From Escherichia coli (GTDB lineage Bacteria > Pseudomonadota > Gammaproteobacteria > Enterobacterales > Enterobacteriaceae), in NCBI RefSeq assembly GCF_030013595.1, contig NZ_CP122768.1: DNA of 64,000 bases. The stretch is one strand, 5' to 3'. The notes beneath the pieces are model-generated. The model was not told where the DNA came from, ran no database searches, and saw nothing but the letters and a program-made list of their open reading frames with translations. Position numbers and translations under genes: made by a program. Shown in pieces: positions 8,942-60,417 of this stretch (within the stretch, counting starts at the first letter, position 1; every line of letters starts with the position of its first letter).

Positions 8942-10450
8942 TTACTGCTGCGGAATAGCGGGTACAGCCGGAACGTTTAATGCCGGCATTGCAAACATCC
9001 CAACAAAATCTTCCAGTGGCATTTTCTGCCCGTTTAACGTGATCTGACCGTTAGCATATTGCAGGCTGGTGGTGATGGTATTGTCCTGCAAGGTGGTCAG
9101 GCGGAACATCTGCCCCATTGCTGACGCACCTTCAACTTGCTGTTTCGCCAGTTTTTTTGCTTGATCTTCCTGATAACCTTCCAGCTTCGCTACCTGAGTC
9201 ATAAACTCAGTTGCCATATCCACCGGAATGGTCAGTTTCGCATCCAGAGATTTAACCGAGCGGTCTACTTCCTGCGCCAGCGTTTGCGGCGCTTCTTTAC
9301 TCGTTGCCGGATCTTTCAGGAACAGCGACAGATTCAGCGCACTTTCACCCTGACTGTTTTTCCAGCTTAGCGGCGCGATAGTAATCACCGGATCGCCTTT
9401 CAACATCAGCGGCAGGGCGCTAAAGAAGGCTTCCGTCACTTTCTCCTGATAAAGTTCGGGATTGTTGGCAATTTCTGGCTGTGCCAGCAGCGCCTGAGTT
9501 TGCGCGTTATATTGCTGGCTAAACTGATGCCAGGCTTCACCATCAATCTGGCCGACTTTTAAAGTCAGCTTGCCGCTGCCCAGATCCTGATTCTGTACCT
9601 TCAGGCTGTTTAGCGAGTAATCCAGTTGGCTATTGATCGTTTTACCGTCATTGACCAGATCCGATTTACCGCTGATCTCCATGCCTTCCAGCAGTGCCAG
9701 TTCTTTGCCTTCCACTGAAATGGTCATTTTTTCCAGTGACAGTTTTTGGTTTCCTACGCGCTCACCAAAACTTGCCAGCGTGCTGGAACCGTCGGTTTTC
9801 AGATTATTAAAGGTCAACTGCACTTTCTGGTTGTATTCGTTAACTGCGTCTATCCGACCACTTTGCGCCTCCCCGGAAAGGGAGATAGCTTTGCCGTCTC
9901 TGTCCGCATTTAACTGGAACTCGCCGCCGCTAAAGGCGACTTTTTCATCCTTTTGCTCGTAATTCAGCGGCTTGAGCGAAATATCGGAACTGGAATCTCC
10001 GCTGTAACCAATGCGGGAGTTAATCTCAAAAGGCGTTTCACCTTTTGCCATATCAAACAGTGGCTTGCTAACTTCGTTATTAACCAGCGTGGTTTGAATT
10101 GATGCCATCGACGGGATCAGGTTCAGTTTTTTTAGCTGGGCAAGGGGGAAGGGACCATGATCAACCGATTCGTTGAAGATGACGCTCTGACCGCTTTTAA
10201 TCCACGGATTTTCTTTCCCGGCAATGGGTTTCACCAACAGTTGCAGCTGACTGCTGAATACGCCGCGATGATAGTTTTGATAACTCACTTCCAGGTTGGA
10301 TTCAGGAGCGGTCAGTTTGAGTTGCGCGTTCGCCTGCGCGACCATGTCTTCGAGATGGGTTTCAATCTTCTTGCCTGTATACCATGCGCCGCCTGTCCAG
10401 ACTACGCCTAGCGCAACAATGACGCCTACCGCTACCAGCGATTTATTCAT
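8942..10450 (-). CDS. ydgA: DUF945 family protein YdgA
   Basis: 502 aa ORF with N-terminal signal/anchor (MNKSLVAVGVIVALGVVWTGGAWYTGKK); K-12 synteny. Confidence 0.85.
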   Translation of the reverse strand: MNKSLVAVGVIVALGVVWTGGAWYTGKKIETHLEDMVAQANAQLKLTAPESNLEVSYQNYHRGVFSSQLQLLVKPIAGKENPWIKSGQSVIFNESVDHGPFPLAQLKKLNLIPSMASIQTTLVNNEVSKPLFDMAKGETPFEINSRIGYSGDSSSDISLKPLNYEQKDEKVAFSGGEFQLNADRDGKAISLSGEAQSGRIDAVNEYNQKVQLTFNNLKTDGSSTLASFGERVGNQKLSLEKMTISVEGKELALLEGMEISGKSDLVNDGKTINSQLDYSLNSLKVQNQDLGSGKLTLKVGQIDGEAWHQFSQQYNAQTQALLAQPEIANNPELYQEKVTEAFFSALPLMLKGDPVITIAPLSWKNSQGESALNLSLFLKDPATSKEAPQTLAQEVDRSVKSLDAKLTIPVDMATEFMTQVAKLEGYQEDQAKKLAKQQVEGASAMGQMFRLTTLQDNTITTSLQYANGQITLNGQKMPLEDFVGMFAMPALNVPAVPAIPQQ

Positions 10451-10550: not shown

Positions 10551-11726
10551 TTACAGCTTGTTGTAAACACGCGCTAAACGGCCGTGGCCTTTGACAGTCA
10601 CCGGTGATTCGTTGGCGGCAATAAACGCTGATTCACCCGGTTTAAGCTGTAACTGCTGAGAACCTTTACACAGCGTTGCATCGCCTTCGACGCAGAACAA
10701 AATGGCGGCACTCTGCTGGCTGATGGTGGTTTCTTTATCACTAAGGTCATGCAGCGAGAAGGCAAAATCATCAACAGGAATCGGGAAGTCCAGTTCTGCA
10801 CCTTGTTTCACCGGCTGGGTCAACAACTGGTTAGCCGGTTTGGCTTCGAACTTCACATTGGTAACCAGTTCCGGAATATCAATGTATTTAGGCGTCAGAC
10901 CCGCACGCAGCACGTTATCGGAGTTAGCCATCACTTCCAGCGCCACGCCTTGCAGGTAAGCGTGCGGTGTTTCAGCGAACAGGAACATCGCTTCGCCCGG
11001 GTTCAATTTCACCACATTCAGCAATAGCGGGGAGAACAGACCGCTGTCTTCCGGGTAAAATTCAGAAATTAAACGAATCGTTTGCCACGGTTCACCCTGC
11101 TGGCTGTCGAGCGCCGATTTTAAAATCGCCAGCGCGCGGGATTTTTCTTCCCCCTGCATATTCAGCAGGCTGGCGAACAGTTCGCTTAAACGTTCGGCAT
11201 CAGGCTGTTGTAAAAAGTGAGCAATCGCCGGATGTGCACCTGCGACTGGCTGGAGTAGGGAAACAATCTCGGAAAATTCACGAAACGCATTCATCGCAAG
11301 GAAAGGCGTCAGCGCAAAAACCAGCTCCGGCTTGTGGTTAGGATCTTTATAGTTACGCTCGGCGGCATCCATCGGAATACCTGCGGCATTTTCTTTGGCA
11401 AAACCGATTTCAGAATTGCGTTTGTTTGGATGAACCTGAATGGAGAGCGGCTGTGCTGCGCATAATACTTTGAACAGGAAAGGCAGTTCGCCAAAGCGTT
11501 TGGCAACGGCCTCTCCGAGCAGAGTCGATTTATCACTCTCAATCACATCACGCAGTGAAACGATATCTCCGGCGGCATTCTGCACTCGTGAACTGCTTTT
11601 TGGATGTGCGCCCATCCACAGCTCGGCCATCGGCTGGCTGGACGGATTTTCCATACCATAAAGTTCAGTCAACGCCGTTTTGCTGCCCCAGGCATAGTTT
11701 TGCACTGAGTTAATGAGTTTTTGCAT
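10551..11726 (-). CDS. manA: mannose-6-phosphate isomerase
   Basis: Internal start MQKLINSVQNYAWGSKTALTELYGMENPSSQPMAELWMGAHPKSS gives 391 aa ManA; the track ORF begins at an upstream in-frame ATG. Confidence 0.9.
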   Translation of the reverse strand: MQKLINSVQNYAWGSKTALTELYGMENPSSQPMAELWMGAHPKSSSRVQNAAGDIVSLRDVIESDKSTLLGEAVAKRFGELPFLFKVLCAAQPLSIQVHPNKRNSEIGFAKENAAGIPMDAAERNYKDPNHKPELVFALTPFLAMNAFREFSEIVSLLQPVAGAHPAIAHFLQQPDAERLSELFASLLNMQGEEKSRALAILKSALDSQQGEPWQTIRLISEFYPEDSGLFSPLLLNVVKLNPGEAMFLFAETPHAYLQGVALEVMANSDNVLRAGLTPKYIDIPELVTNVKFEAKPANQLLTQPVKQGAELDFPIPVDDFAFSLHDLSDKETTISQQSAAILFCVEGDATLCKGSQQLQLKPGESAFIAANESPVTVKGHGRLARVYNKL

Positions 11727-39784: not shown

Positions 39785-40811
39785 TTATATTTTTTCGATC
39801 TCGACCAGATTAGTGTGCTGCGGGTTTCCCTTCGCCAGTGGTGAAGGGCGCAGAGTGGTTAGCGTATTCACACAGCCGCCATGGTCGATTTTATCGCCAG
39901 ACATATTGGCCTCGTGCCAGGCTCCCTGGCCCATAGCGCTAACCCCAGGGAGAATGCGTGGTGTTACTTTGGCTGGTAGCCGAACTTCGCCACGATGGTT
40001 AAACACCCGCACCATATCGCCGTTGGCAATCCCACGTTTCTGTGCATCTATAGGGTTGATCCACACCTCCTGACGGCAGGCTTCCTTCAGGACATCAATA
40101 TTGCCGTAGGTCGAGTGGGTACGGGATTTGTAATGGAAACCAAACAGTTGCAGTGGGAAGGTTCTACGTTCAGGGGAGTCCCAGCCTTCAAAGGTTGAGG
40201 CATAAACTGGCAGTGGGCTTATCACTTCATCTTTTTCCAGTTCCCAGGTACGGGCAATTTCCGCCAGCTTGCTGGAATAAATTTCAATCTTACCGGAAGG
40301 CGTTTTAAGTGGATTTGCCTCGGGGTCGTCACGAAATGCTTTGTAGGCGACAAAATGACCATTGGGATCTTTACGCTTATAGATACCCATTTTTTTCAGT
40401 TCGTCGTAAGACGGTAACGCCGGATCTTTGGCAAGCATTTTGGCGTACAGATGTTGTAACCATTGTTCCTGCGTGCGACCTTCTGTGAACTTTTGATAGA
40501 CGTCAGGTCCAAGACGTTTCGCGACTTCACTCAGGATCCAGTAAATCGGTTTGCGTTCGAATTTTTCGCTGGTGACTGGCTGAAGGAAAATGAGATATCC
40601 CATGTTACCTGCGTAGTCGTTAGGAATAATATCTTCCTGCTCAACGGTCATCAGGTCTGGCAGCAGAATGTCGGCATATTTTGCCGATGAGGTCATAAAG
40701 TTTTCGATGACCACAATCATTTCGCATTTCGATTCGTCCTGCAGAATTTCATGCGTTTTGTTGATGTCAGAATGCTGATTAACCAGGGTATTTCCCGCGT
40801 AGTTCCAGATG
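39785..40811 (-). pseudogene. ynfE: ynfE 3' fragment (codons from about IWNYAGNTL to the C-terminus), separated from its 5' part by a 9.4-kb insertion
   Basis: Translation aligns residue-by-residue with the C-terminal half of YnfF; homology begins exactly at the 11-bp repeat 40801-40811; the track ORF 39785..40951 is a chimera with insert-derived N-terminus. Confidence 0.85.
40801..40811 (+). repeat. left copy of 11-bp direct repeat AGTTCCAGATG (att core or target-site duplication)
   Basis: Identical 11-mer at 50242-50252; joining the flanks restores the in-frame ynfE sequence ...VPIKFIWNYAGNTL... Confidence 0.8.
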
Positions 40812-40876
40812 GACTCCACTGTCAGACGGATGGACGGACTTGAAGTAGTTGACTCAACGCTACTTAAGGTCCTGAT

Positions 40877-42485
40877 ATGACTGACATTAACTATGATAAT
40901 ACTGTATATCCATCCAGCTCTTTCTCTGGGTCTCCCTATCTGTATGGGCAAGTCTACACCTCAAGTCCTGACACAAGGCTGACACAAATCAATCTACTCA
41001 GCGTAGCTAAGCCTCAGTTAGTCCGTAGAGCCAATGGTCGATATACTATCCGCTTCAGACTCAAGGGACAGACCACACCGTTTCTTTCAGTATCGACCCG
41101 AAGCACAGACAGGAGAGTAGCCACAATGCGTCAGAGAGAGCTTGCAGCCACAGCTAAGGCCTTCATGTTGGATAGGCCTGAAGTCTCACTACAGGAGCTT
41201 ACAGAGCATCTCCGGTCTATGGCTGAGCAGTTCCTGACAGACGCTAGTGACGATTACTGGAATGGACTTGAGGTCGCTACTTTGGTGGACGAGAAGTCCA
41301 ACCTGAAGGAGCTAGCCGCTACGCAAGCCTTGAGTCTGGACCAGCAGAAGGGCATAAGGTTAGCGCTTGAAGTCCTGACCGCAGCACAGCAGAGGGTAGA
41401 TACTGGTGATACGTCCAGTCTAATCAAGCTGATTGGTGGTGGCGTAAGCCAGCTTACTGATGGAGATGACAATAACCTTACTAATAACTCAACTATATGC
41501 GACTCTACGTTGATTCTGAGGAACGAGCAGGGGGTCAGCCCGCAAGTATTCACGAGAGAGCGCCAACCATCTGTAGTTTTTTCAAGCCTAGTGTCCTCAC
41601 TGCTGGCTGAGAAGGTCCAGACCCTGAAGTCCTCCAGCTACAAGGACCTGTCGTCCTCACTGAATACCGTCTCTCGGTTTCTGCCTGAAGATATGGACCT
41701 GATGTCCCGCTCTGAGTGGCTGGCAGTGAGGGACGCTATGCTGGCTGCTGAGGTGAGACCATCGACAATCAACAAGCTGCTGACCAAAGCGAAGATGTGT
41801 CTCGATTATGGCCTGATGAATGGGCAACTTGAGGGCCGCAACCCTATTGAACGGATGAAGCTGACCAAGGATACCGACTCCAAGCGCAGAGCGTTCACAG
41901 ACGAGGAGCTGGAGAGACTTCTGGTCCGTGTTGAGGCTGAGTATCAGTTCACACGACACACGGCTCACACGACCTCTGAGGCCCGTAGATGGGCGTCTCT
42001 GGTGTCTGTGGTCACTGGCGCGAGGTCTGCTGAGGTCTGCCACCTGACTAAACGTGACGTTGTAACCTTGGACAATGGACTGGTCTGTATCGACATCAAT
42101 GAAGATGGGGACGGGAAGTCTGTGAAGAACAAACATTCAGTCCGACTTGTGCCGTTAACCGATGGGGCCTGTGGTTTCAGCCTGAAGTCCTTCCTCAAAT
42201 GGGTAGACACTCAGCCTGCTGATGGTCCCCTCTTTGGTATGACTCCGAGTGCCTACTCTAGTTGGTTTAACTCTAGGGTCCTGACTGAGGCCCTAGGAGA
42301 CGCTGAGAACGTTTCTCCACAGTCTGAGACATTGGCTGGCGACCCGAATGAAAGAGCGTGGAGTCAATCTGGTGGACGCTCAAGGCATCTTAGGTCACAG
42401 CAGTCAGTCCATTACGTATGACCTGTACGGGAAAGGACACGCTGTTGGTAGGCTGGCTGAGGTGCTGAAGACAGCTTTACTTTAA
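40877..42485 (+). pseudogene. tyrosine recombinase/integrase with apparent 1-nt frameshift upstream of box II
   Basis: ORF 40877-42421 contains box I (VVTGARSAEVCHLTKRDV) but ends out of frame; the HSLRHWLATRM...LGHSSQSITYDLYGKGH catalytic His-Arg-His-Tyr region is in another frame (42297-42485). True start is probably downstream of 40877, since arm-type repeats lie at 40968-40987. Confidence 0.6.
40968..40987 (+). repeat. two 11-bp-spaced direct repeats CTGACACAA (putative integrase arm-type sites, left arm)
   Basis: CTGACACAAGG and CTGACACAAAT in tandem; same motif recurs three times at the right end. Confidence 0.5.
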
Positions 42486-42562
42486 GTAGGAAGACCCAAG
42501 GTGGAGACCATATACGGCTTGATGGTTGAGACCTTGGGTCACTGAAGTCTGACTGAAGTTAG

Positions 42563-42603
42563 GGAGGGTGATAATAATCATAATCCCTCCTGACTATAGG
42601 CCC
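42563..42603 (+). promoter_or_regulatory. hairpin (GGAGGG-16 nt-CCCTCC) followed by T7-class promoter-like motif CTGACTATAGGCCC
   Basis: Direct reading of sequence; TATAGG core shared with motifs at 42801-43474. Confidence 0.35.
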
Positions 42604-42644
42604 ACTGGTTCGCCTTCGGCTGTCCGACTCTAAGTCTGTCTGTG

Positions 42645-42776
42645 GTCTTATTTAAACTGGTTCCCTAACTCAGGTCCTCCAACTTGGTGTCTTATTTAAA
42701 CTGGTTCCCTAACTCAGGTCCTCCAACTTGGTGTCTTATTTAAACTGGTTCCCTAACTCAGGCCCCTCCAAATTTC
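42645..42776 (+). repeat. three tandem copies of a 44-bp repeat (GTCTTATTTAAACTGGTTCCCTAACTCAGGTCCTCCAACTTGGT)
   Basis: Units start at 42645, 42689 and 42733; first two identical, third diverges in its last 14 nt. Confidence 0.85.
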
Positions 42777-42800
42777 GTTGTCTGTCAGCGACTTAAATAT

Positions 42801-42855
42801 CCCCTCACCTTAGAAGAGTTTAGGGTTCAGACCCTTAACTATCACCTTAGGAGAG
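42801..42855 (+). promoter_or_regulatory. pair of single-subunit phage RNAP promoter-like motifs (CCCCTCACCTTAGAAGAG and AACTATCACCTTAGGAGAG)
   Basis: Resemble SP6/T3-class promoters (…CACTATAGAAGAG / …CCCTCACTAAAGGGAGA); located just upstream of the 166-aa ORF. Confidence 0.35.
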
Positions 42856-42901
42856 ACGGGCCGTCCTCCACCCAATCAAAACCTTAAGAGGAGGACCATA
42901 C

Positions 42902-43402
42902 ATGGCTATTAAAATTCAGTGCTACACCGAGTCCGACAATGCGGCTTTCTTCGGTGACGATTCCGACCTCCAGCACCAGCTACCAGCACCGACATATGAC
43001 GAACCTAAGGCCCGCACAGGTAAGCCTCCTGTGGTCATCGACAACCGGGCTGTCCGTGCGTGGCTGATTGAGACTGGGTGTCTCTCCTATACGCAGCTTG
43101 TTGAGGCGTACCCGTGGGCTGACGATGTGTTCACAGGACTCTCACGGGCTACCAGTGGCGCTGTCGGTGCTGGACTCCCGGTATCTAAGGCGTACCTGTT
43201 CTCTGCCTTATATGGCACCAACGACATCTTCTCCCGTAACACAGCCAAATCCTACGCTGACATCACTGGGCGTTCACCGTCTCCTCGCTACCTGCGCCAC
43301 GTCAATAGCGTGCTTCAGGCTACGGCTGTGAATCTGGCTAAGGTTCTGAAGGACCGAGGGGATTTCACATGGTGGGATTACAACGATCAGTGCCTGTCCT
43401 GA
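42902..43402 (+). CDS. hypothetical protein (166 aa)
   Basis: ORF with GAGGAGG Shine-Dalgarno 8 nt upstream; no recognisable motifs. Confidence 0.55.
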   Translation: MAIKIQCYTESDNAAFFGDDSDLQHQLPAPTYDEPKARTGKPPVVIDNRAVRAWLIETGCLSYTQLVEAYPWADDVFTGLSRATSGAVGAGLPVSKAYLFSALYGTNDIFSRNTAKSYADITGRSPSPRYLRHVNSVLQATAVNLAKVLKDRGDFTWWDYNDQCLS

Positions 43403-43426
43403 GAGCCGCGCCAGCTCTGGGCTGGA

Positions 43427-43474
43427 ATACCCCCTCACTATAGGGACACCCCCTAAACTATCACTATAGGGGGG
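43427..43474 (+). promoter_or_regulatory. pair of T3/T7-class promoter-like motifs (CCCCCTCACTATAGGGACA and AACTATCACTATAGGGGGGA)
   Basis: First motif matches the T3 promoter core CCCTCACTAAAGGGA at 14 of 15 positions and the T7 core TCACTATAGGGA exactly; no RNAP gene in the element. Confidence 0.45.
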
Positions 43475-43620
43475 ACCAACCTTGCCTCTGCTTCTGATGC
43501 GTCAGAACACGCGAGGTCCTCCCGACATTAAGTATTCTCCTAAGTAATCAAGGCCCGTGACCGCCTCTGACAGACCTCCTGTATCGACCTCCAGCTCGTT
43601 AGCGTTCTTTAGTCGTCTCG

Positions 43621-43628
43621 GTTAGTAG
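43621..43628 (+). repeat. 8-bp target-site duplication GTTAGTAG (left) of IS66-family copy 1
   Basis: Identical octamer at 46329-46336 immediately outside the IS ends. Confidence 0.8.
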
Positions 43629-43712
43629 GTAACCGGCTCATTTAAACCGTCTGGTCTGTTTCCTCCGGCTCTACAAAAATAATGTCCATCATTTTTTAAT
43701 GGACACTATCGT

Positions 43713-44360
43713 ATGAAACACCGGACCTGGATCACTGAAGCTTTACGTCTTCACTTTGAAGAACATTTACCCCGGGTTGTGGCCGGGCGTCGCCTGGGTG
43801 TACCAAAATCAACAGTTTGTAGTATGTTCGTGCGCTTTCGGAGAGCTGGCCTTTCGTGGCCTTTGCCCGCAGGCATGTCGGAGCAGGAACTTGATGCCTG
43901 CCTTTACGGACAATTTTCCACGGTACCAGTCGTACGTCCTGAAAGCACCGTTATATCCGAAGCCCCCGTGGTAAAAAAACGTCCCCGGCGGCCCAACTTC
44001 CCTTATGAGTTTAAAATCGCCTTAGTGGAGCAGTCACTGCAGCCCGGAGCCTGTGTGGCGCAGATCGCCCGGGAAAACGGAATCAACGATAACCTGCTCT
44101 TCAACTGGCGCCATCAATACCGGAAAGGTGGCCTGCTGCCTTCCGGAAAAAATATGCCGGCACTGCTTCCCGTGACGTTAACGCCGGAGCCGGATAATAA
44201 AATCCCGGCCCCCGCACAGGAACCAGAGCAGATAAATACACCGTCCGACAGTCTGTGTTGTGAGCTGGTTCTGCCGGCCGGAACTCTCAGGCTTAAAGGT
44301 AAACTGACGCCGGCGTTATTACAGACACTTATCCGCGAAATAAAAGGGAGCAGCCACTGA
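43713..44360 (+). CDS. IS66-family accessory protein (orf1, HTH)
   Basis: 215 aa first ORF of the IS. Confidence 0.8.
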   Translation: MKHRTWITEALRLHFEEHLPRVVAGRRLGVPKSTVCSMFVRFRRAGLSWPLPAGMSEQELDACLYGQFSTVPVVRPESTVISEAPVVKKRPRRPNFPYEFKIALVEQSLQPGACVAQIARENGINDNLLFNWRHQYRKGGLLPSGKNMPALLPVTLTPEPDNKIPAPAQEPEQINTPSDSLCCELVLPAGTLRLKGKLTPALLQTLIREIKGSSH

Positions 44361-44707
44361 TGATATCTCTCCCTGCAGGTTCGCGTATCTGGCTGGTTGC
44401 AGGTATCACCGATATGCGAAATGGCTTTAACGGCCTGGCATCAAAAGTTCAGAACGTCCTGAAGGATGACCCGTTCTCCGGACACCTGTTCATCTTCCGC
44501 GGACGCCGGGGTGACCAGATAAAAGTGTTGTGGGCTGACAGTGACGGACTGTGCCTCTTCACCAAACGCCTGGAGCGGGGCCGCTTCGTCTGGCCAGTCA
44601 CCCGTGACGGCAAGGTGCACCTTACTCCGGCTCAGTTATCCATGCTTCTTGAAGGTATCAACTGGAAGCACCCGAAACGAACGGAACGCGCTGGAATCCG
44701 CATATAA
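44360..44707 (+). CDS. IS66-family Orf2 (TnpB-like)
   Basis: 115 aa MISLPAGSRIWLVAGITDMRNGFNGLA..., typical IS66 orf2; start overlaps orf1 stop. Confidence 0.85.
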   Translation: MISLPAGSRIWLVAGITDMRNGFNGLASKVQNVLKDDPFSGHLFIFRGRRGDQIKVLWADSDGLCLFTKRLERGRFVWPVTRDGKVHLTPAQLSMLLEGINWKHPKRTERAGIRI

Positions 44708-44726
44708 CCCGTTGTAAAGTGAGGAT

Positions 44727-46298
44727 ATGGACACCTCACTTGCTCATGAGAACGCCCGCCTGCGGGCACTGTTGCAGACGCAACAGGACACCATCCGCCA
44801 GATGGCTGAATACAACCGCCTGCTCTCACAGCGGGTGGCGGCTTATGCTTCCGAAATCAACCGGCTGAAGGCGCTGGTTGCGAAACTGCAACGTATGCAG
44901 TTCGGTAAAAGCTCAGAAAAACTTCGTGCAAAAACCGAACGGCAGATACAGGAAGCACAGGAGCGAATCAGCGCACTTCAGGAAGAAATGGCGGAAACGC
45001 TGGGTGAGCAATATGACCCGGTACTGCCATCCGCCCTGCGCCAGTCTTCAGCCCGTAAACCGTTACCGGCCTCACTTCCCCGTGAAACCCGGGTTATCCG
45101 GCCGGAAGAGGAATGCTGTCCTGCCTGTGGTGGTGAACTCAGTTCTCTGGGATGTGATGTGTCAGAGCAACTGGAGCTTATCAGCAGCGCCTTTAAGGTT
45201 ATCGAAACACAACGTCCGAAACAGGCCTGTTGCCGGTGCGACCATATCGTACAGGCACCAGTACCTTCAAAACCCATTGCACGCAGTTATGCCGGAGCGG
45301 GGCTTCTGGCCCATGTTGTCACCGGGAAATATGCAGACCATCTGCCGTTATACCGCCAGTCAGAAATATACCGTCGTCAGGGAGTGGAGCTGAGCCGTGC
45401 CACACTGGGGCGCTGGACAGGTGCTGTTGCTGAACTGCTGGAGCCGCTGTATGACGTCCTGCGCCAGTATGTGCTGATGCCCGGTAAAGTCCATGCTGAT
45501 GATATCCCCGTCCCGGTCCAGGAGCCGGGCAGCGGTAAAACCCGGACAGCCCGGCTGTGGGTCTACGTCCGTGATGACCGTAACGCCGGTTCACAGATGC
45601 CCCCGGCGGTCTGGTTCGCGTACAGTCCGGACCGGAAAGGTATCCATCCACAAAATCACCTGGCCGGTTACAGCGGTGTGCTTCAGGCCGATGCTTACGG
45701 TGGTTACCGGGCGTTATACGAATCCGGCAGAATAACGGAAGCCGCGTGTATGGCTCATGCCCGGAGAAAAATCCACGATGTGCATGCAAGAGCGCCCACC
45801 TACATCACCACGGAAGCCCTGCAGCGTATCGGTGAACTGTATGCCATCGAGGCAGAGGTCCGGGGCTGTTCAGCAGAACAGCGTCTGGCGGCAAGAAAAG
45901 CCAGAGCCGCGCCACTGATGCAGTCACTGTATGACTGGATACAGCAACAGATGAAAACACTGTCGCGTCACTCAGATACGGCAAAAGCGTTCGCATACCT
46001 GCTGAAACAGTGGGATGCACTGAACGTGTACTGCAGTAATGGCTGGGTGGAAATCGACAACAACATCGCAGAGAACGCCTTACGGGGAGTGGCCGTAGGC
46101 CGGAAAAACTGGATGTTCGCGGGTTCCGACAGCGGTGGTGAACATGCGGCGGTGTTGTACTCGCTGATCGGCACATGCCGTCTGAACAATGTGGAGCCAG
46201 AAAAGTGGCTGCGTTACGTCATTGAACATATCCAGGACTGGCCGGCAAACCGGGTACGCGATCTGTTGCCCTGGAAAGTTGATCTGAGCTCTCAGTAA
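44727..46298 (+). CDS. IS66-family transposase (orf3)
   Basis: 523 aa with N-terminal leucine-zipper-like region, CxxC...CxxC zinc finger and DDE region. Confidence 0.85.
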
Positions 46299-46328
46299 AT
46301 ATCAATACGGTTCTGACGAGTCGCTTAC

Positions 46329-46336
46329 GTTAGTAG
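46329..46336 (+). repeat. 8-bp target-site duplication GTTAGTAG (right) of IS66-family copy 1
   Basis: Matches 43621-43628. Confidence 0.8.
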
Positions 46337-46582
46337 CTCGTCTACTCACTACATTGGCTTAAGTCTATCACCGCTCACCATCTGGAGTCCTTACAGCTCG
46401 TCCTGACATGCGGTCTCACCTTATATGCACATGGAGAACATGGCCACTCCAGACCAACACTAATCAACATTAACCCTATTCACTTTCGTTAAGCATTTTT
46501 TGGTGGGTCCGTTTGGATGCATTGAATAGGTGCGGACTCCACGTGGAGACAGAAAGTGCTTTACTAAAGGAGCATCCTTTAT

Positions 46583-46972
46583 ATGACTATTAAATCCATC
46601 GTTATCAACGGTAAGACCATCCTGTCTACACCTAACGCCATCAATGAGGGTGTCTGGTTCGACATGCTTGAGGTCCATCAAGCTGCTGGCTTGCCTGCTA
46701 ACAAGACGTTCTCACAGTGGCGCAGCCGACAGTCTCGTGCATTAGAAGAGGCTGGAGAGGTGTCGTTTGACAGTGTACAGAAGACCCTGTGTGGCAGCTT
46801 TGTGGCAGTGCTGGCCTACCTTATGTGGGCGGACCTTACTCTCTGGCTGGCGGTGGTTCGTTACGTTGCGTCTGAGACTATCGGCGTCCTGCCTGACCGC
46901 TTCAAGTCTATCGACGGTGATAACCCCGAGTTAGAAATGTCAGAGGATAACAGCGAGTGGGAGGACTTCTAA
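46583..46972 (+). CDS. KilA-N domain protein (129 aa)
   Basis: N-terminal pattern (INGKTI...NEGVWFDMLEV...GLPANKTFSQW) and hydrophobic WxxxLxxxL segment typical of KilA-N/APSES DNA-binding domains. Confidence 0.5.
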   Translation: MTIKSIVINGKTILSTPNAINEGVWFDMLEVHQAAGLPANKTFSQWRSRQSRALEEAGEVSFDSVQKTLCGSFVAVLAYLMWADLTLWLAVVRYVASETIGVLPDRFKSIDGDNPELEMSEDNSEWEDF

Positions 46973-46973
46973 G

Positions 46974-47714
46974 ATGACCATGAGCCAGCTTGAAGCATTA
47001 CCTATCGTCATCGAGGGTCATTCATTCATCTGCAACGACCAGCGCATGTGGAACCTGAACGAGATTCACCGAGTGTTAGGTCTTCCAGCAAGCAAGATGC
47101 CGTCTGAGTGGAATAACAAGATTCGCACACAACTTGACCGCTCCGGAAATTTCCGGACCGTGAATGGTGACGGCGGTGGTACATGGGCGACCGAGGCTGG
47201 GACCGTGGCTTATGCTATGTGGGTCTCTACAGATTTCTACCTGATGGTCATCAATGCTTTCATCTTTATGCGTAACGACGCAATCGTCCGAGAGCGTGTA
47301 GCGGTCAAACAGGCTGACGAGGCTAACGCTAACCTCTCCATCGCAGCACCTAAGGCAGACATCTTTGACGGTCGTCTGACCAATGGTGGCTCTGTTCCGT
47401 GGAACTGGGCGTGTAAATCTTTGGGTCTTGCCCCGATGAAACTGAAAGAGGGCTTGAAGCGCTCCGGTAAGTTCGTCCAGAAGTGGAACCCTGACAGTTA
47501 CGCCGACGAGCTTCGACCTCAGGAGAAGGCGTTCAGTATTGGACTATTCGTCACTAAGTCAGTCATGGGTAAAGACACATGGCAGGTGACAGCTAAAGGC
47601 TACGCATGGATGCAGGGGAACGCCCAGAAGTGGAGAGAGCTAATAGCTGATGGTGACCGCTTAAAGGCTGCTGAGCGTCGAGCACAGAAGCGTCTTAACC
47701 GTGGAGGTAAGTAG
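46974..47714 (+). CDS. KilA-N domain protein with C-terminal extension (246 aa)
   Basis: Paralogous to upstream ORF (IEGHSFICNDQRMWNLNEIHRVLGLPASKMPSEW... GTWATEAGTVAYAMWVSTDFYLMV). Confidence 0.5.
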   Translation: MTMSQLEALPIVIEGHSFICNDQRMWNLNEIHRVLGLPASKMPSEWNNKIRTQLDRSGNFRTVNGDGGGTWATEAGTVAYAMWVSTDFYLMVINAFIFMRNDAIVRERVAVKQADEANANLSIAAPKADIFDGRLTNGGSVPWNWACKSLGLAPMKLKEGLKRSGKFVQKWNPDSYADELRPQEKAFSIGLFVTKSVMGKDTWQVTAKGYAWMQGNAQKWRELIADGDRLKAAERRAQKRLNRGGK

Positions 47715-47716
47715 TC

Positions 47717-47941
47717 ATGGCTATGATTGACCCTCGTACACCTATCGGCAAAGCGACCCTTCGTTACCGTGGTCTGCCTACACGTCATCTGCTGTCCCTG
47801 CTGAGACTTGGAGTCGAAGACCCCGAACGCCCGTACTACAGTCGAGACGAGCTAATAGCTATGTTGGTGGACCGTGATTTAGACAATCAGTTACGCCGAG
47901 CCTTTGCGAAGTCTAGCGCAGCTAGGGAACTGGAGTCCTGA
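47717..47941 (+). CDS. hypothetical protein (74 aa)
   Basis: ORF tightly coupled to upstream gene (3-nt gap). Confidence 0.4.
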   Translation: MAMIDPRTPIGKATLRYRGLPTRHLLSLLRLGVEDPERPYYSRDELIAMLVDRDLDNQLRRAFAKSSAARELES

Positions 47942-48146
47942 ACCTTATGGGGCAGAAAAACCGCCGCATAAACCTATCGTCTGCTGACCGAAGTTTCGAC
48001 GCATTGAGCCAGACGGAAAAGTTTTCCTGCTGGTAAACCACCTTAATTTAAACACCTTTTGAGAATGACCGATGCGGGGAGACCCGTAGGCATAACTGTG
48101 TCTGCGATACCGATAGTTCTCACCTTCTCAATAGGAGTACTACCTT

Positions 48147-48638
48147 ATGTTATTCAACAACAACGACTGGAAACTATCAGTCACCGACATCAATCCCTAT
48201 GAAAATACTGTGAGTCTGGACGGTCAGTCCTATCCGCTGTCTCTGGCGATTAAGACCCTGATTCCGGGCTACCTGTCAGGCTTACCGTCCACCAGCCGCG
48301 AGGCGATGGAGTTACTGGAAGCTCTGGCTGAAGCTGGCGTGTCCATTGGCAACTTCTTCAGTAATGACCTGATGACCGCCTATGGTCGCCGCCAGCAGAA
48401 CAAGCGAGCCGAAGCTGAGCGTATTGCTAAAGAGCAGCGCATTCAGGCTGAGCGTATGCGTGAAGAGAACATGACTGATGCAGAGTGGCAGAAAGAGCTA
48501 CAGCGCCGTGAACAGGTCAAAGCTGAACGCCGGACCTATGGTGAGCACCTCCGCAGTGCTACCCATTCCGCTGGGCGCTCCCGTGCTTCTATGGTCGCTG
48601 ACATTGAGTCCACGGACAACTGGATGGACAGCCTCTAA
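48147..48638 (+). CDS. hypothetical coiled-coil protein (163 aa)
   Basis: C-terminal half highly charged and heptad-like (RRQQNKRAEAERIAKEQRIQAERMREENMTDAEWQKELQRREQVKAERR). Confidence 0.5.
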   Translation: MLFNNNDWKLSVTDINPYENTVSLDGQSYPLSLAIKTLIPGYLSGLPSTSREAMELLEALAEAGVSIGNFFSNDLMTAYGRRQQNKRAEAERIAKEQRIQAERMREENMTDAEWQKELQRREQVKAERRTYGEHLRSATHSAGRSRASMVADIESTDNWMDSL

Positions 48639-48704
48639 GACACAGACACACAAGTGGTCCTGACCTGATGTCGGGACCCACAGTATCCAAACTAATTTAG
48701 GAGA

Positions 48705-49700
48705 TTGATTATTATGACGATTAAAGACGCTTTCCAGTTCGGCATTGAGCCAGTACGTATCAGCGACACCGACAACATTCAGATTAACGAAGGTTTGCCA
48801 ACTAACGCAGACCCGCAGGTCTATGCCCTCCAGTTAGCTAAGACGGTTAAGGCTATGCTGAACGGTGTACTTAAAGACGCTCAAGAGAACATCCCGTTCC
48901 CTGTAGAAGTCCTGCCGACCCGCAATAGCCTGCCTACTCCAATCATTGCTCACACTCTGGCTGATCGCTCTGTGGTCGTTCCTGTCCGTGGTGGTAAGCG
49001 ACCTGAAGTCGTGACCGTTCCGTCTGGACAAGAAATCGTGGTCGAACCAATCGAGCAGGCTATTCTCATCTCTGAGCAGACCAAGCTCTGGGACGCCAAG
49101 TCATCCACCGGATTCACTCAGGGCACACTTCAGCAGGACGCTATGAACATCTGTGAGAATGTGGTCCGTACCATCAACGCTCGCATGGTCGACGTTCTGG
49201 AGTCCTCCAAACTGTTGAAGACCGTAGAGCTGCCAGTCCTGACTGGAAGCCTGACCACTAAGGCAGACGCTATCATGGACGCTCTGTTTGAGAACACCGA
49301 GTCCTCTTTCGGCTCTGAAGTGTCTGATTACGGCATCATCGCCCATGAGTCCCAACTGAAAGCGCTGTCCCGTCTGGCAGCTAAACAGGGCTTCTCTGGT
49401 GGAGACGCTATCGTGGATATGCTGGGTACCGACATCGCCTATTACAACGGTGAAGACAAGGGTGTATTCATGCTGGCTAAACGCTTCACGGCCCTGAGCT
49501 TCGGCTGCTTCCGTCACGACGGTGAGAATATTACGGTCGTCCTTTCACGTGATGGCGACTCTCAGTCCCACGACTTGGAAATCCTCGGTAAAGTGTTCGT
49601 TGTCGCTGAAGCTGCTACGACCATCAAGATGGGCACTGGCTCAGCTACTGCCGTCCTGCCTGTAGTCAAACGCCTGAAGTTCACCAAGACCGAAGCGTAA
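48705..49700 (+). CDS. hypothetical protein (331 aa), possible structural/morphogenetic protein
   Basis: Largest non-integrase ORF of the element; follows the coiled-coil ORF; AGGAG Shine-Dalgarno upstream; no motif I can assign. Confidence 0.5.
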   Translation: MIIMTIKDAFQFGIEPVRISDTDNIQINEGLPTNADPQVYALQLAKTVKAMLNGVLKDAQENIPFPVEVLPTRNSLPTPIIAHTLADRSVVVPVRGGKRPEVVTVPSGQEIVVEPIEQAILISEQTKLWDAKSSTGFTQGTLQQDAMNICENVVRTINARMVDVLESSKLLKTVELPVLTGSLTTKADAIMDALFENTESSFGSEVSDYGIIAHESQLKALSRLAAKQGFSGGDAIVDMLGTDIAYYNGEDKGVFMLAKRFTALSFGCFRHDGENITVVLSRDGDSQSHDLEILGKVFVVAEAATTIKMGTGSATAVLPVVKRLKFTKTEA

Positions 49701-49844
49701 GACCAATGGGTAAGAGGTAAGTCTGGACTGAATATCAGCAGGACTTCAGGTGGTGGCCTGTCACTGTGATTAACTAACTACGGTCTGGACCAATGGTCTG
49801 GGCCTTATTACTGGTATGGTAGTATACAGGCGAAGGAGGACCCA

Positions 49845-50000
49845 ATGTCTATGACTTCCGCAGACCTAAGGTCCCTCCTGACTCTGGTCTATAAACTCGT
49901 GTTCCTCTCTGTGGGTCTCTACATGGTTCTCTCTGGTCGACTCGGTGTGGATGTGTTCGACACTCTGTCTAAGGCTGTGGGTGGACTTCTAGGTCCTTAG
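49845..50000 (+). CDS. small single-pass membrane protein (51 aa)
   Basis: ATG with AGGAGGA Shine-Dalgarno; MSMTSADLRSLLTLVYKLVFLSVGLYMVLSGRLGVDVFDTLSKAVGGLLGP; below ORF-track cutoff. Confidence 0.4.
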   Translation: MSMTSADLRSLLTLVYKLVFLSVGLYMVLSGRLGVDVFDTLSKAVGGLLGP

Positions 50001-50153
50001 GTTTGGACTCACAGTGGGACCGATGATTTCTGACAGAAAAATGTGAATGACCATCTAATACATTAAGCCAGCAGACTTCCCCCCATAGTCCCGCCTCAAG
50101 TCCAGACCGAGGCCACCGGGGGTCCTGACCAGCCGTCTAGACATCCCGTCTAA

Positions 50154-50186
50154 TGACACAAGTCTGGCACAAAGCCTGACACAAAG
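50154..50186 (+). repeat. three 11-bp-spaced direct repeats TGACACAAG / TGGCACAAAG / TGACACAAAG (putative arm-type sites, right arm)
   Basis: Same motif and orientation as 40968-40987 at the opposite end of the element. Confidence 0.5.
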
Positions 50187-50241
50187 TCCTTGACTCAATG
50201 CAGGACCTCAGGCCTACTAAGGGTCCGCTTCAAGTCCTTGA

Positions 50242-50252
50242 AGTTCCAGATG
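50242..50252 (+). repeat. right copy of 11-bp direct repeat AGTTCCAGATG
   Basis: Identical to 40801-40811. Confidence 0.8.
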
Positions 50253-57831: not shown

Positions 57832-59403
57832 TTACTGAGAGCTCAGATCAACTTTCCAGGGCAACAGATCGCGTACCCGGTTTGCCGGCCAGTCCTGGAT
57901 ATGTTCAATGACGTAACGCAGCCACTTTTCTGGCTCCACATTGTTCAGACGGCATGTGCCGATCAGCGAGTACAACACCGCCGCATGTTCACCACCGCTG
58001 TCGGAACCCGCGAACATCCAGTTTTTCCGGCCTACGGCCACTCCCCGTAAGGCGTTCTCTGCGATGTTGTTGTCGATTTCCACCCAGCCATTACTGCAGT
58101 ACACGTTCAGTGCATCCCACTGTTTCAGCAGGTATGCGAACGCTTTTGCCGTATCTGAGTGACGCGACAGTGTTTTCATCTGTTGCTGTATCCAGTCATA
58201 CAGTGACTGCATCAGTGGCGCGGCTCTGGCTTTTCTTGCCGCCAGACGCTGTTCTGCTGAACAGCCCCGGACCTCTGCCTCGATGGCATACAGTTCACCG
58301 ATACGCTGCAGGGCTTCCGTGGTGATGTAGGTGGGCGCTCTTGCATGCACATCGTGGATTTTTCTCCGGGCATGAGCCATACACGCGGCTTCCGTTATTC
58401 TGCCGGATTCGTATAACGCCCGGTAACCACCGTAAGCATCGGCCTGAAGCACACCGCTGTAACCGGCCAGGTGATTTTGTGGATGGATACCTTTCCGGTC
58501 CGGACTGTACGCGAACCAGACCGCCGGGGGCATCTGTGAACCGGCGTTACGGTCATCACGGACGTAGACCCACAGCCGGGCTGTCCGGGTTTTACCGCTG
58601 CCCGGCTCCTGGACCGGGACGGGGATATCATCAGCATGGACTTTACCGGGCATCAGCACATACTGGCGCAGGACGTCATACAGCGGCTCCAGCAGTTCAG
58701 CAACAGCACCTGTCCAGCGCCCCAGTGTGGCACGGCTCAGCTCCACTCCCTGACGACGGTATATTTCTGACTGGCGGTATAACGGCAGATGGTCTGCATA
58801 TTTCCCGGTGACAACATGGGCCAGAAGCCCCGCTCCGGCATAACTGCGTGCAATGGGTTTTGAAGGTACTGGTGCCTGTACGATATGGTCGCACCGGCAA
58901 CAGGCCTGTTTCGGACGTTGTGTTTCGATAACCTTAAAGGCGCTGCTGATAAGCTCCAGTTGCTCTGACACATCACATCCCAGAGAACTGAGTTCACCAC
59001 CACAGGCAGGACAGCATTCCTCTTCCGGCCGGATAACCCGGGTTTCACGGGGAAGTGAGGCCGGTAACGGTTTACGGGCTGAAGACTGGCGCAGGGCGGA
59101 TGGCAGTACCGGGTCATATTGCTCACCCAGCGTTTCCGCCATTTCTTCCTGAAGTGCGCTGATTCGCTCCTGTGCTTCCTGTATCTGCCGTTCGGTTTTT
59201 GCACGAAGTTTTTCTGAGCTTTTACCGAACTGCATACGTTGCAGTTTCGCAACCAGCGCCTTCAGCCGGTTGATTTCGGAAGCATAAGCCGCCACCCGCT
59301 GTGAGAGCAGGCGGTTGTATTCAGCCATCTGGCGGATGGTGTCCTGTTGCGTCTGCAACAGTGCCCGCAGGCGGGCGTTCTCATGAGCAAGTGAGGTGTC
59401 CAT
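57832..59403 (-). CDS. IS66-family transposase (orf3)
   Basis: 523 aa product identical to 44727-46298. Confidence 0.85.
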
Positions 59404-59422
59404 ATCCTCACTTTACAACGGG

Positions 59423-59770
59423 TTATATGCGGATTCCAGCGCGTTCCGTTCGTTTCGGGTGCTTCCAGTTGATACCTTCAAGAAGCATGGATAACTGAGC
59501 CGGAGTAAGGTGCACCTTGCCGTCACGGGTGACTGGCCAGACGAAGCGGCCCCGCTCCAGGCGTTTGGTGAAGAGGCACAGTCCGTCACTGTCAGCCCAC
59601 AACACTTTTATCTGGTCACCCCGGCGTCCGCGGAAGATGAACAGGTGTCCGGAGAACGGGTCATCCTTCAGGACGTTCTGAACTTTTGATGCCAGGCCGT
59701 TAAAGCCATTTCGCATATCGGTGATACCTGCAACCAGCCAGATACGCGAACCTGCAGGGAGAGATATCAT
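59423..59770 (-). CDS. IS66-family Orf2 (TnpB-like)
   Basis: 115 aa identical to copy 1. Confidence 0.85.
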   Translation of the reverse strand: MISLPAGSRIWLVAGITDMRNGFNGLASKVQNVLKDDPFSGHLFIFRGRRGDQIKVLWADSDGLCLFTKRLERGRFVWPVTRDGKVHLTPAQLSMLLEGINWKHPKRTERAGIRI

Positions 59771-60417
59771 CAGTGGCTGCTCCCTTTTATTTCGCGGATA
59801 AGTGTCTGTAATAACGCCGGCGTCAGTTTACCTTTAAGCCTGAGAGTTCCGGCCGGCAGAACCAGCTCACAACACAGACTGTCGGACGGTGTATTTATCT
59901 GCTCTGGTTCCTGTGCGGGGGCCGGGATTTTATTATCCGGCTCCGGCGTTAACGTCACGGGAAGCAGTGCCGGCATATTTTTTCCGGAAGGCAGCAGGCC
60001 ACCTTTCCGGTATTGATGGCGCCAGTTGAAGAGCAGGTTATCGTTGATTCCGTTTTCCCGGGCGATCTGCGCCACACAGGCTCCGGGCTGCAGTGACTGC
60101 TCCACTAAGGCGATTTTAAACTCATAAGGGAAGTTGGGCCGCCGGGGACGTTTTTTTACCACGGGGGCTTCGGATATAACGGTGCTTTCAGGACGTACGA
60201 CTGGTACCGTGGAAAATTGTCCGTAAAGGCAGGCATCAAGTTCCTGCTCCGACATGCCTGCGGGCAAAGGCCACGAAAGGCCAGCTCTCCGAAAGCGCAC
60301 GAACATACTACAAACTGTTGATTTTGGTACACCCAGGCGACGCCCGGCCACAACCCGGGGTAAATGTTCTTCAAAGTGAAGACGTAAAGCTTCAGTGATC
60401 CAGGTCCGGTGTTTCAT
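59770..60417 (-). CDS. IS66-family accessory protein (orf1)
   Basis: 215 aa identical to copy 1. Confidence 0.8.
   Translation of the reverse strand: MKHRTWITEALRLHFEEHLPRVVAGRRLGVPKSTVCSMFVRFRRAGLSWPLPAGMSEQELDACLYGQFSTVPVVRPESTVISEAPVVKKRPRRPNFPYEFKIALVEQSLQPGACVAQIARENGINDNLLFNWRHQYRKGGLLPSGKNMPALLPVTLTPEPDNKIPAPAQEPEQINTPSDSLCCELVLPAGTLRLKGKLTPALLQTLIREIKGSSH

Follow-up and report, generated by a model that had tools for sequence, protein, structure and literature searches.

Predicted phage RNA polymerase promoters in tandem on an Escherichia coli chromosomal island, a probable satellite of T7-like phages

The locus

The window described here is a stretch of 64,000 nt from the chromosome of Escherichia coli (contig NZ_CP122768.1), which amounts to 128 kb when both strands are counted. 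It has the gene order mlc-bioD-clcB-dmsD-ynfHGF, and ynfE is split by an integrated island, with fragments annotated on both sides of it. This island (40801-50252, 9.4 kb here) is the subject of this report. It carries paired sequences that resemble promoters of the single-subunit RNA polymerases (RNAPs) of T7-like phages, it encodes a protein modelled with the fold of a phage capsid protein, and no RNAP gene is recognised in it. The island is probably a satellite of such phages.

An 11-bp direct repeat, AGTTCCAGATG, bounds the island. The left attachment (att) core, attL, is at 40801-40811 in ynfE, and the right one, attR, at 50242-50252. The main reference for the window copy is L001, a sister island in E. 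coli strain 2017-02-1CC (NZ_AP027759) that is free of insertion sequences (ISs). L001 (9002-15629) is 6,617 bp long and has its repeat pair at 9002 and 15619. Its genes are on one strand: an integrase, a 166-aa open reading frame (ORF), a KilA-N regulator, proteins of 57, 163, 328 and 75 aa, and two more small ORFs.

The integrase is of the tyrosine type (40877-42485, + strand; phrog_1 integrase, E 6e-41). It is intact at 534 aa in L001 and frameshifted here: a 514-aa ORF runs to 42421, short of the catalytic-Tyr motif, and another frame, at 42315-42482, holds the C-terminus.

Two promoter pairs, P1 and P2, bracket the 166-aa ORF (42902-43402, +), which is the first gene 3' of P1. No function is assigned to it. 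Its family is confined to Enterobacteriaceae, and its AlphaFold2 (AF2) model, made with a 12-sequence alignment, was unusable (pLDDT 37.8).

In the window copy, P2 is parted from the late genes by an IS66-family, ISCro1-like insertion (43629-46328, +) that is absent from L001. It has an 8-bp target duplication, GTTAGTAG, at 43621-43628 and 46329-46336, and its tnpA, tnpB and transposase genes are annotated in identical copies. A second ISCro1-like IS66 copy is present at 57832-60417 on the - strand. It is inverted relative to the one in the island, and recombination between the two could invert the roughly 11 kb in between.

Beyond the insertion lies a gene for a KilA-N / anti-repressor-like regulator of 246 aa (46974-47714, +; phrog_129 at E 2e-11 and phrog_63 Ant at E 9e-11), which shares 42% identity with its KilA-N counterpart in L001. 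Next is a small core protein (47717-47941, +), 74 aa long in the window copy and 57 aa in L001. Family searches gave no match for it, and a homologue is found in nearly every related island that spans the region, including the distant L016-L019. The charged, helical protein of 163 aa (48147-48638, +) is encoded directly 5' of the capsid gene in all loci. Its position and composition make it a putative scaffold; relatives show a faint DUF6971 match, and there is no significant match in Pfam.

The 328-aa protein (48714-49700, +) is, judging by its AF2 model (pLDDT 82.5, pTM 0.78), a major capsid protein (MCP) with the HK97 fold. Foldseek found 194 matches in PDB and 194 in BFVD at E<=1e-3, and all those listed are HK97-type capsids, capsid-derived cages or encapsulins. 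The top BFVD match is the minor capsid protein of Pseudomonas phage phiIBB-PF7A. At the sequence level the protein has no match in Pfam, PHROG or the phage collection, T7-like phages included.

The remnant of a homologue of T7 gp7.3 follows at 49708-49769 (+). It is internally deleted, and the window reads ATGGGTAAGAGGTAA. L001 has the intact 75-aa homologue, which matches phrog_1320 (E 4e-9) and, by tblastn, gene 7.3 of phages EcoDS1 (E 2e-5) and Ro103C3lw (E 1e-6). A terminator-like hairpin (49782-49804, +) closes the late operon; its L001 equivalent, GGTCTGGACAAATGGTCTGGACC plus TTTGTTTTGT, came from a terminator scan, and the T run is weaker in the window. PHROG and NCBIfam recognise no tail, polymerase, primase or protease genes in the island.

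Sequences and methods

Promoters were scored with two 23-nt position weight matrices (PWMs). The class A matrix stands for the K1F/EcoDS1 promoter type and was built from 11 EcoDS1 promoters annotated in the record. The class B matrix stands for the T3-like type of Ro103C3lw, GW1 and SFP21B and was built from 12 Ro103C3lw promoters. The scan covered the whole window, with 50 shuffles as control. Native promoters score 29.4-35.7 bits in EcoDS1 (class A) and 28.1-35.6 bits in Ro103C3lw (class B).

Relatives of the island were found with an alignment of 8 sequences. L003 is Logan contig ERR10768130 (6794 bp) and L044 is Logan contig SRR29836470 (6661 bp). For the promoter count in the family, the 10-nt core AC[TC][ATG]TAG[GA][GA] was used over 21 related islands. 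Island proteins were annotated with Pfam, PHROG, NCBIfam and PADLOC and compared with phages by tblastn. AF2 models were searched with Foldseek against PDB and BFVD.

Promoter scores

A first-pass annotation of the window had listed five T3/T7-class promoter-like motifs in an element without an RNAP gene. The five strings do sit where it placed them, all on the + strand, and its layout of two pairs around the 166-aa ORF is correct. There is no polymerase-sized or polymerase-like ORF in the island (40801-50252). For the motif at 43427, part of P2-B, the match to the T3 core at 14 of 15 positions and the exact T7 core TCACTATAGGGA are both borne out.

A T7-group promoter is 23 bp long (-17 to +6), with the core CACTATA at -7 to -1 and initiation at G. 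A degenerate form of this core finds the four paired motifs inside 680 bp, and one further match in the 128 kb of both strands. P2-A and P2-B contain CACTATAGGG, and P1-A and P1-B contain CACCTTAG(G/A).

Three of the motifs are well separated from background. P2-A, CCTAAACTATCACTATAGGGGGG (43452-43474, +), a K1F/EcoDS1-class promoter of late type, scores 29.7 bits on the class A PWM, which is in the native range. P2-B, AATACCCCCTCACTATAGGGACA (43426-43448, +), is T3-like (class B-like) and scores 25.7 bits on the class B PWM, where the shuffle maximum is 21.7; over 23 nt it agrees with the T3 consensus at 18/23 positions. P1-A, CCTTAACTATCACCTTAGGAGAG (42833-42855, +), is again of the K1F/EcoDS1 class, lies 5' of the 166-aa ORF and scores 24.8 bits on the class A PWM (shuffle maximum 21). 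P1-A and P2-B fall under the native ranges, yet above all shuffles. The top scores over the 50 shuffles are 21-22 bits, and the three motifs beat every shuffle by 3-8 bits. A PWM scan had been suggested in the first-pass annotation; with the EcoDS1 and Ro103C3lw matrices it yields no comparable match elsewhere in the window, where the best score is 13 bits.

The other two motifs fared differently. P1-B, AATATCCCCTCACCTTAGAAGAG (42796-42818, +), is a weak T3-like (class B-like) motif 37 nt 5' of P1-A, with 10.5 bits on the class B PWM. It is also seen in L001, with one change, and in L002. Only its paired position and its presence in these sister copies speak for it, not its score. The motif at 42591, CTGACTATAGGCCC (PWM start 42582, +), has 7.5 bits on the class B PWM and is the 3' flank of a hairpin discussed below. 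It was ruled out as a promoter.

Promoter classes

A 31-nt query around the AACTATCAC motif matched 808 phage records. In 188 of these, mostly Kayfunavirus, at least 80% of the query is covered, with 7-11 sites per genome. A run of 26 nt is 100% identical in K1F, EcoDS1, CR44b, PE3-1 and many further Kayfunavirus, and some of the records annotate these sites as promoters. The L001 allele of P2-A, which is of the AACTATCAC type, is identical at 26/26 positions to the annotated EcoDS1 promoter directly 5' of capsid gene 10A. The CACCTTAGG variant seen in P1-A is native to EcoDS1 as well, as the promoter before gene 4 at 11107.

The CCCCTCAC type resembles class B of the Kayfunavirus Ro103C3lw, GW1 and SFP21B, which has the consensus TTAAACCCTCACTATAGG. 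This consensus equals T3 at -11 to -8. What separates class A from class B promoters is positions -10 and -9, with CTAT in the former and CCCT in the latter before the common CAC core. Between the polymerases of EcoDS1 and Ro103C3lw there is 88% identity; in the specificity loop, the residues that align with T7 N748 and R756 are N/N in the former and D/R in the latter. A D at the position aligned with N748 is the T3 state.

By sequence, P1-A, P2-A and P2-B are members of the Kayfunavirus/T3 promoter families, and each pair resembles a set of one promoter per polymerase class, one of EcoDS1/K1F type and one T3-like. T7 RNAP itself should use neither class, because it requires G/A/C at -11/-10/-9. 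The T3/T7 label of the first-pass annotation therefore stands for T3-like and K1F/EcoDS1-type Kayfunavirus polymerases, and falls for T7 itself as the cognate phage.

The island's promoters can be compared with the class II/III promoters of Kayfunavirus, both those of K1F, EcoDS1 and CR44b and the T3-like ones of Ro103C3lw and GW1. All have the common 23-bp architecture, a CACTATAGG(G/A) core and class-specific bases at -12 to -8. The Kayfunavirus promoters are in phage genomes, whereas those of the island are on a bacterial chromosome in an element without an RNAP. Tandem promoters of two classes occur in the island; neither phage genome examined, EcoDS1 or Ro103C3lw, showed such an arrangement. 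Unlike the Kayfunavirus promoters, the class B-like copies of the island bear C at -12/-13. Exact scans of IMG/VR for the promoter forms CCCCCTCAC and CCCTCACCTTAG in phages gave unrelated chance matches alone (L020-L029).

The island family

The module of scaffold-like and capsid genes is found in 309 of 5426 complete E. coli genomes (about 6%), always on the chromosome. The insertion site in E. coli is ynfE, or a place beside tRNA-Gly/ETT2. Relatives occur in Leclercia, Citrobacter, Enterobacter, Buttiauxella, Kluyvera, Proteus, Shimwellia and further Enterobacterales, which makes at least 8 genera besides Escherichia. Across these at least 9 genera, the capsid gene and the adjoining scaffold-like gene are kept at 45-95% identity, together with an integrase and att sites.

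The promoter arrays are a feature of the family. Over the 21 islands, the stretch between int and the capsid gene has the core motif at 60 sites on its coding strand, or 0.72/kb. There are 12 on the opposite strand, and elsewhere the density is 0.055/kb.

Which classes are combined varies. Islands of Leclercia and Citrobacter have canonical pairs of class B and class A, 26-27 nt apart, and at the position of P2-B relatives hold the canonical form TTATACCCTCACTATAGGGA. Islands of the enterohaemorrhagic E. coli (EHEC) type pair a class C promoter (ICP3-like) with one of class A. The Kluyvera island has two triplets of three classes each. The distant L037 has three pairs of two other classes, and L044 and L035 also have other classes. 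This recurrence of different specificities side by side makes the best case for the arrays being functional sensors of several helpers. A relic of one phage would carry one specificity.

Further promoter classes in distant members are AATGAAACCCACACTATAGG, AATTAACCACACTATAGAG, GGAAGGTACACTATAGGGAGAG, AACACCCACTAATGGGAGACAC and ATTAAATTATCACTATAGGGAAC, again in pairs or triplets. They are located in L016 (5520-5690, 6250-6395), L037 (4486-4570, 5165-5285, 6315-6380) and L044 (2044, 2483). The promoters of these distant members amount to a natural catalogue of RNAP specificities.

Relatives found in IMG/VR have contig identifiers in the style of isolate genomes and were taken to be prophage-style calls. 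The Logan contigs are integrated copies. Two of them, L003 and L044, are about as long as an island and break just outside the att repeats; they have chromosomal flanks and no terminal overlap. Such breaks would fit a polymorphism in the presence of the island, or its excision in the culture that was sequenced.

Some sister islands also carry a known defence gene. A protein of L003 matches PD-T7-4, which is the same as RAZR, in PADLOC at E 1e-97; it is encoded by a DUF4145 gene that overlaps the stop of the integrase. The gene is at 1765-2418 in L003, 1645-2304 in L030/L031 and 4346-4999 in L032, all of them islands at tRNA-Gly beside ETT2; in L030-L033 its presence is by annotation. PD-T7-4/RAZR, with its ZFD and DUF4145 (HEPN) domains, is beside int in these sister islands, whereas the window's island does not have it.

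According to passages of PMC13017515, RAZR is an abortive-infection RNase against T7 and T3 that is set off by the portals of both phages. Vassallo et al. state, in a passage of PMC9519451, that PD-T7-4 'often overlaps an integrase gene'. The passages of PMC9519451 and PMC13017515 drawn on here deal with the defence gene and make no mention of promoters, a capsid gene or satellite status for the islands around RAZR. The main text of PMC13017515 does not use the word 'satellite' at all, and in PMC9519451 the word means P4 satellites only.

Hairpin and leader

The hairpin that has the rejected motif at 42591 as its 3' flank is at 42557-42595 (+). It folds at -16.2 kcal/mol (z -2.6), and 28-32 nt of it are 100% identical to a right-end element of Kayfunavirus. 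This element occurs once per genome, near the right ends of these phages, and 238 phage records have a match to it. In EcoDS1 its place is between phiOR and gene 19.5, and T7 has a hairpin in the corresponding place.

Chung & Hinkle and Fujisawa reportedly placed the T7 packaging signals at the right end or concatemer junction. Passages of PMC9860248 also put them in the right-end/concatemer-junction region. Because T7 packaging signals occupy this region, the hairpin, copied from K1F-like phages, is a candidate mimic of a packaging or replication signal. It is the only end element that the island has in common with helpers, downstream of phiOR. The terminal repeats of the prospective helpers EcoDS1 and Ro103C3lw have no similarity in the island at word size 7.

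A conserved structured leader of about 100 nt lies directly 5' of the first late gene. It was compared in 13 islands, including distant ones, and has 34 predicted pairs, of which 8 show compensatory changes. It is at 12024-12125 in L001 and is present also in L003, L007-L009, L011, L012, L016-L019, L030, L032, L035 and L037. The leader is predicted to partly occlude the region before the ribosome-binding site. The window's variant has no leader. Rfam gave no credible match, and the leader likewise went unmatched.

Interpretation

The likeliest explanation is that the island is a satellite of virulent Kayfunavirus phages, of both the K1F/EcoDS1 and the T3-like Ro103C3lw types, and that it is induced by the polymerase of its helper. 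We give this a probability of roughly 0.68, on evidence that is computational throughout. As a satellite would, the island has a site-specific recombinase with att repeats, and its set of virion and replication genes is incomplete. As the complete set is lacking, it would depend on a helper. Expression triggered by a helper's RNAP, which the first-pass annotation had proposed, is supported at this level by the identity with Kayfunavirus promoters, the conserved strand-specific arrays and the T7-linked cargo.

The proposed course of events is as follows. In an uninfected cell the late genes would be silent, because only a phage single-subunit RNAP reads the promoters. Upon infection by a cognate phage, its RNAP would fire P1, expressing the 166-aa gene, and P2, expressing the regulator, the scaffold-like protein, the capsid protein and the gp7.3 homologue. 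With one promoter per specificity class, the island could respond to helpers with differing polymerases. It would then excise by means of Int.

The origins of T7 are themselves RNAP promoters. The helper replisome may thus copy the island, possibly primed at the same promoters as happens at T7 origins. Packaging could be in heads made of the island's own capsid protein, on the portal and tail of the helper. Alternatively, about six copies in a row might be packaged in full-size heads. Six times 6,617 bp is 39,702 bp, compared to 39,704 bp for the K1F genome; this agreement may be coincidence. According to a passage of PMC13236587 that cites Chung & Hinkle 1990, T7 will replicate and package plasmids bearing a T7 origin, a pac site and a terminal repeat, and will transduce them.

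A more far-reaching version of this proposal holds that the islands are the first recognised satellite family of the Autographiviridae, that their arrays have one promoter per RNAP class and serve for several helpers, that they form HK97 particles of their own on a helper portal and tail, that they are widespread, and that they are the hitherto unrecognised vehicle of RAZR/PD-T7-4. The odds of all this being right are about even.

Several observations weigh against a satellite. The island has no recognised replication protein, portal, terminase, excisionase, terminal repeat or pac site in PHROG, NCBIfam and the phage comparison. The 166-aa ORF has no match in Pfam, PHROG, NCBIfam, PADLOC or by tblastn against phages. 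Known phages have A at -12/-13, and the class B-like motifs of the window C; P2-B is below the native score range, P1-B has the 10.5 bits given above, and ACCCCCTCACTATAGGG is in no IMG/VR phage. No virome or circular form of the island was found. The window copy is probably inactive, given its integrase frameshift, IS66 insertion and gp7.3 deletion. Finally, the capsid-like protein could serve interference and not transfer.

The likeliest rival is a defence island that does not transduce. Its promoters would then be an infection sensor, driving the capsid-like protein, the scaffold-like protein, the gp7.3 mimic and the 166-aa protein to poison phage assembly or kill the cell, and the island would spread by other means. 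Sister islands do bear the abortive-infection gene PD-T7-4/RAZR beside int (passages of PMC13017515 and PMC9519451), packaging and replication genes are not recognised by PHROG or NCBIfam, and known satellites such as PLE and P4 are generally known to interfere with their helpers. However, a complete capsid gene and a scaffold-like gene kept across at least 9 genera with int and att are the pattern expected of a mobile element that forms particles, and mimicry in cis is suggested by a hairpin that was copied from the right end of the helper. Defence is plausible in part, and a purely defensive island is unlikely on this evidence. Interference and transfer are not mutually exclusive.

It is very improbable that the island is a decayed temperate T7-like prophage, comparable to the integrase-bearing Autographiviridae LUZ100 or a P. 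putida prophage, which has lost its RNAP and most other genes. An integrase alongside T7-type promoters, a capsid gene and gp7.3 would fit such an origin, and the window copy is visibly decaying. But one set of genes, about 6.5 kb long and in one order, recurs in many genera and at different att sites (ynfE, tRNA-Gly), with the architecture constant at 6-7 kb; random decay would not generate this. A phage needs one RNAP specificity, and single islands have promoters of two or three. Nor, at the sequence level, does the capsid protein resemble any phage of the collection, T7-like ones included.

Promoter decoys are a still poorer fit. In that case the arrays would mainly titrate phage RNAP, or force wasteful or toxic transcription of the chromosome, and the downstream genes would be incidental. 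The promoters are strong, late-type and in tandem, and P2 of the window was kept although an IS element is now what it reads into. Two to six sites are, however, too few to titrate an enzyme made at thousands of copies in T7 infection, and the promoters are always co-oriented with, and 5' of, a conserved operon with a structured leader. Chance resemblance in an AT/GC-neutral intergenic region can be set aside: by PWM the motif at 42591 and arguably that at 42796 are no better than chance, but for the other three it is refuted by scores above all shuffles, by the 26-nt exact phage identity of one allele and by arrays in 21 islands.

The satellite proposal matters because T7-like phages are the textbook example of strictly lytic phages, and workhorses of phage therapy and biotechnology. 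If it is true, this would be a new mode of sensing infection, in which an element reads the transcription machinery of the invader. Arrays with multiple specificities would be explained as a parasite hedging across helpers with diverged polymerases. The island would be a natural counterpart to engineered T7 phagemids, and the genomic vehicle of the RAZR anti-T7 defence would be identified. Therapeutic or laboratory lysates of Kayfunavirus might then hold transducing particles if grown on one of the island-bearing strains, roughly 6% of E. coli. A further use of the promoter arrays could be as a natural catalogue of orthogonal pairs of RNAP and promoter.

Comparison with known satellites

In the open-access literature no earlier description of a satellite of T7-like phages, or of Autographiviridae in general, was found; there may be one elsewhere.

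One likeness is to cf-PICIs, the capsid-forming type of phage-inducible chromosomal island, which are also chromosomal islands with an integrase and an HK97 capsid protein of their own, while the helper supplies the remaining particle. The cf-PICIs are larger and encode portal, protease, connectors and terminase. They use the tails of temperate helpers and are induced by helper proteins that counter a repressor. Going by these descriptions, the island differs in having a capsid and a scaffold-like protein only, in apparently targeting virulent T7-like podophages, and in apparently being induced via the helper's RNAP. From the packaging module of a cf-PICI it has the MCP; portal, protease and terminase have no match in PHROG or NCBIfam.

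PICMIs, minimalist phage-inducible chromosomal islands of Vibrionaceae (PMC10803314), are similar in size, at about 6 kb, bear an integrase and have a virulent helper. They are packaged as a concatemer that fills a head of helper size, 8 x 6.1 kb (PMC10803314); the six-copy length of L001 given above brings this to mind. Their site is beside fis, their core genes are those for Int, AlpA and a replication protein, and they lack a capsid gene (PMC10803314). The island, in contrast, is at ynfE or tRNA-Gly, has a capsid gene and shows no match to a replication protein, which sets it outside the definition of a PICMI. PMC10803314 does not mention Autographiviridae or T7-like phages, and no promoters for phage RNAPs were seen described in it.

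[quoted passage not shown] Both have replication functions of their own and act on the helper's capsid protein with the external scaffolds TcaP and Sid. The island has no sequence relation to PLE or P4 and no genes of P4 or PLE type, and neither of these satellites is known to have promoters for a phage RNAP.

There are also engineered T7 phagemids and transducing plasmids (Chung & Hinkle 1990, via passages of PMC13236587 and PMC9860248). These have no genes for phage proteins; T7 promoters act as their origin, and they carry the terminal repeat and pac as described there. The island has promoters and the hairpin from downstream of phiOR, and no terminal repeat or defined pacB/pacC was found in it. 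It also differs in being natural, in integrating, and in bringing a capsid gene of its own.

The island is thus set apart from cf-PICIs and PICMIs. We rate it as a probable new satellite family with what would be a new induction logic, built on promoters that by sequence belong to known families.

Other features

A tandem repeat of 2.9 x 44 bp is located at 42645-42771, between the integrase and the first promoter pair (Tandem Repeats Finder score 238, 97% matches). It is confined to this variant of the island. It was considered as a family-wide origin or pac and ruled out: it is in L001 and absent from L007, L032 and L016. The sequence ATCTGTT of L001, a candidate class II pause signal, was dropped as well, being chance-expected and not conserved in the window. 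No obvious AT-rich tract is seen 3' of the tandem promoters when the sequence alone is read. A scan for sigma-70 promoters found sites no more often than in shuffles.

Two small ORFs complete the gene content. One, of 129 aa (46583-46972, +), occurs only in the window's variant and has no match in PHROG or PADLOC. The other encodes a hydrophobic protein of 51 aa (49845-50000, +) and has no family match. It is kept in islands of the ynfE type, with a tblastn identity of 94-96% in L007, L009 and L014.

In L001 a 12-bp sequence, TTGACTCAATGC, occurs at both ends of the island, some 45 bp in from the border. The window has it at 50187-50198 and, with one mismatch, near 40849 on the left. These repeats are possible arm-type binding sites of the integrase.

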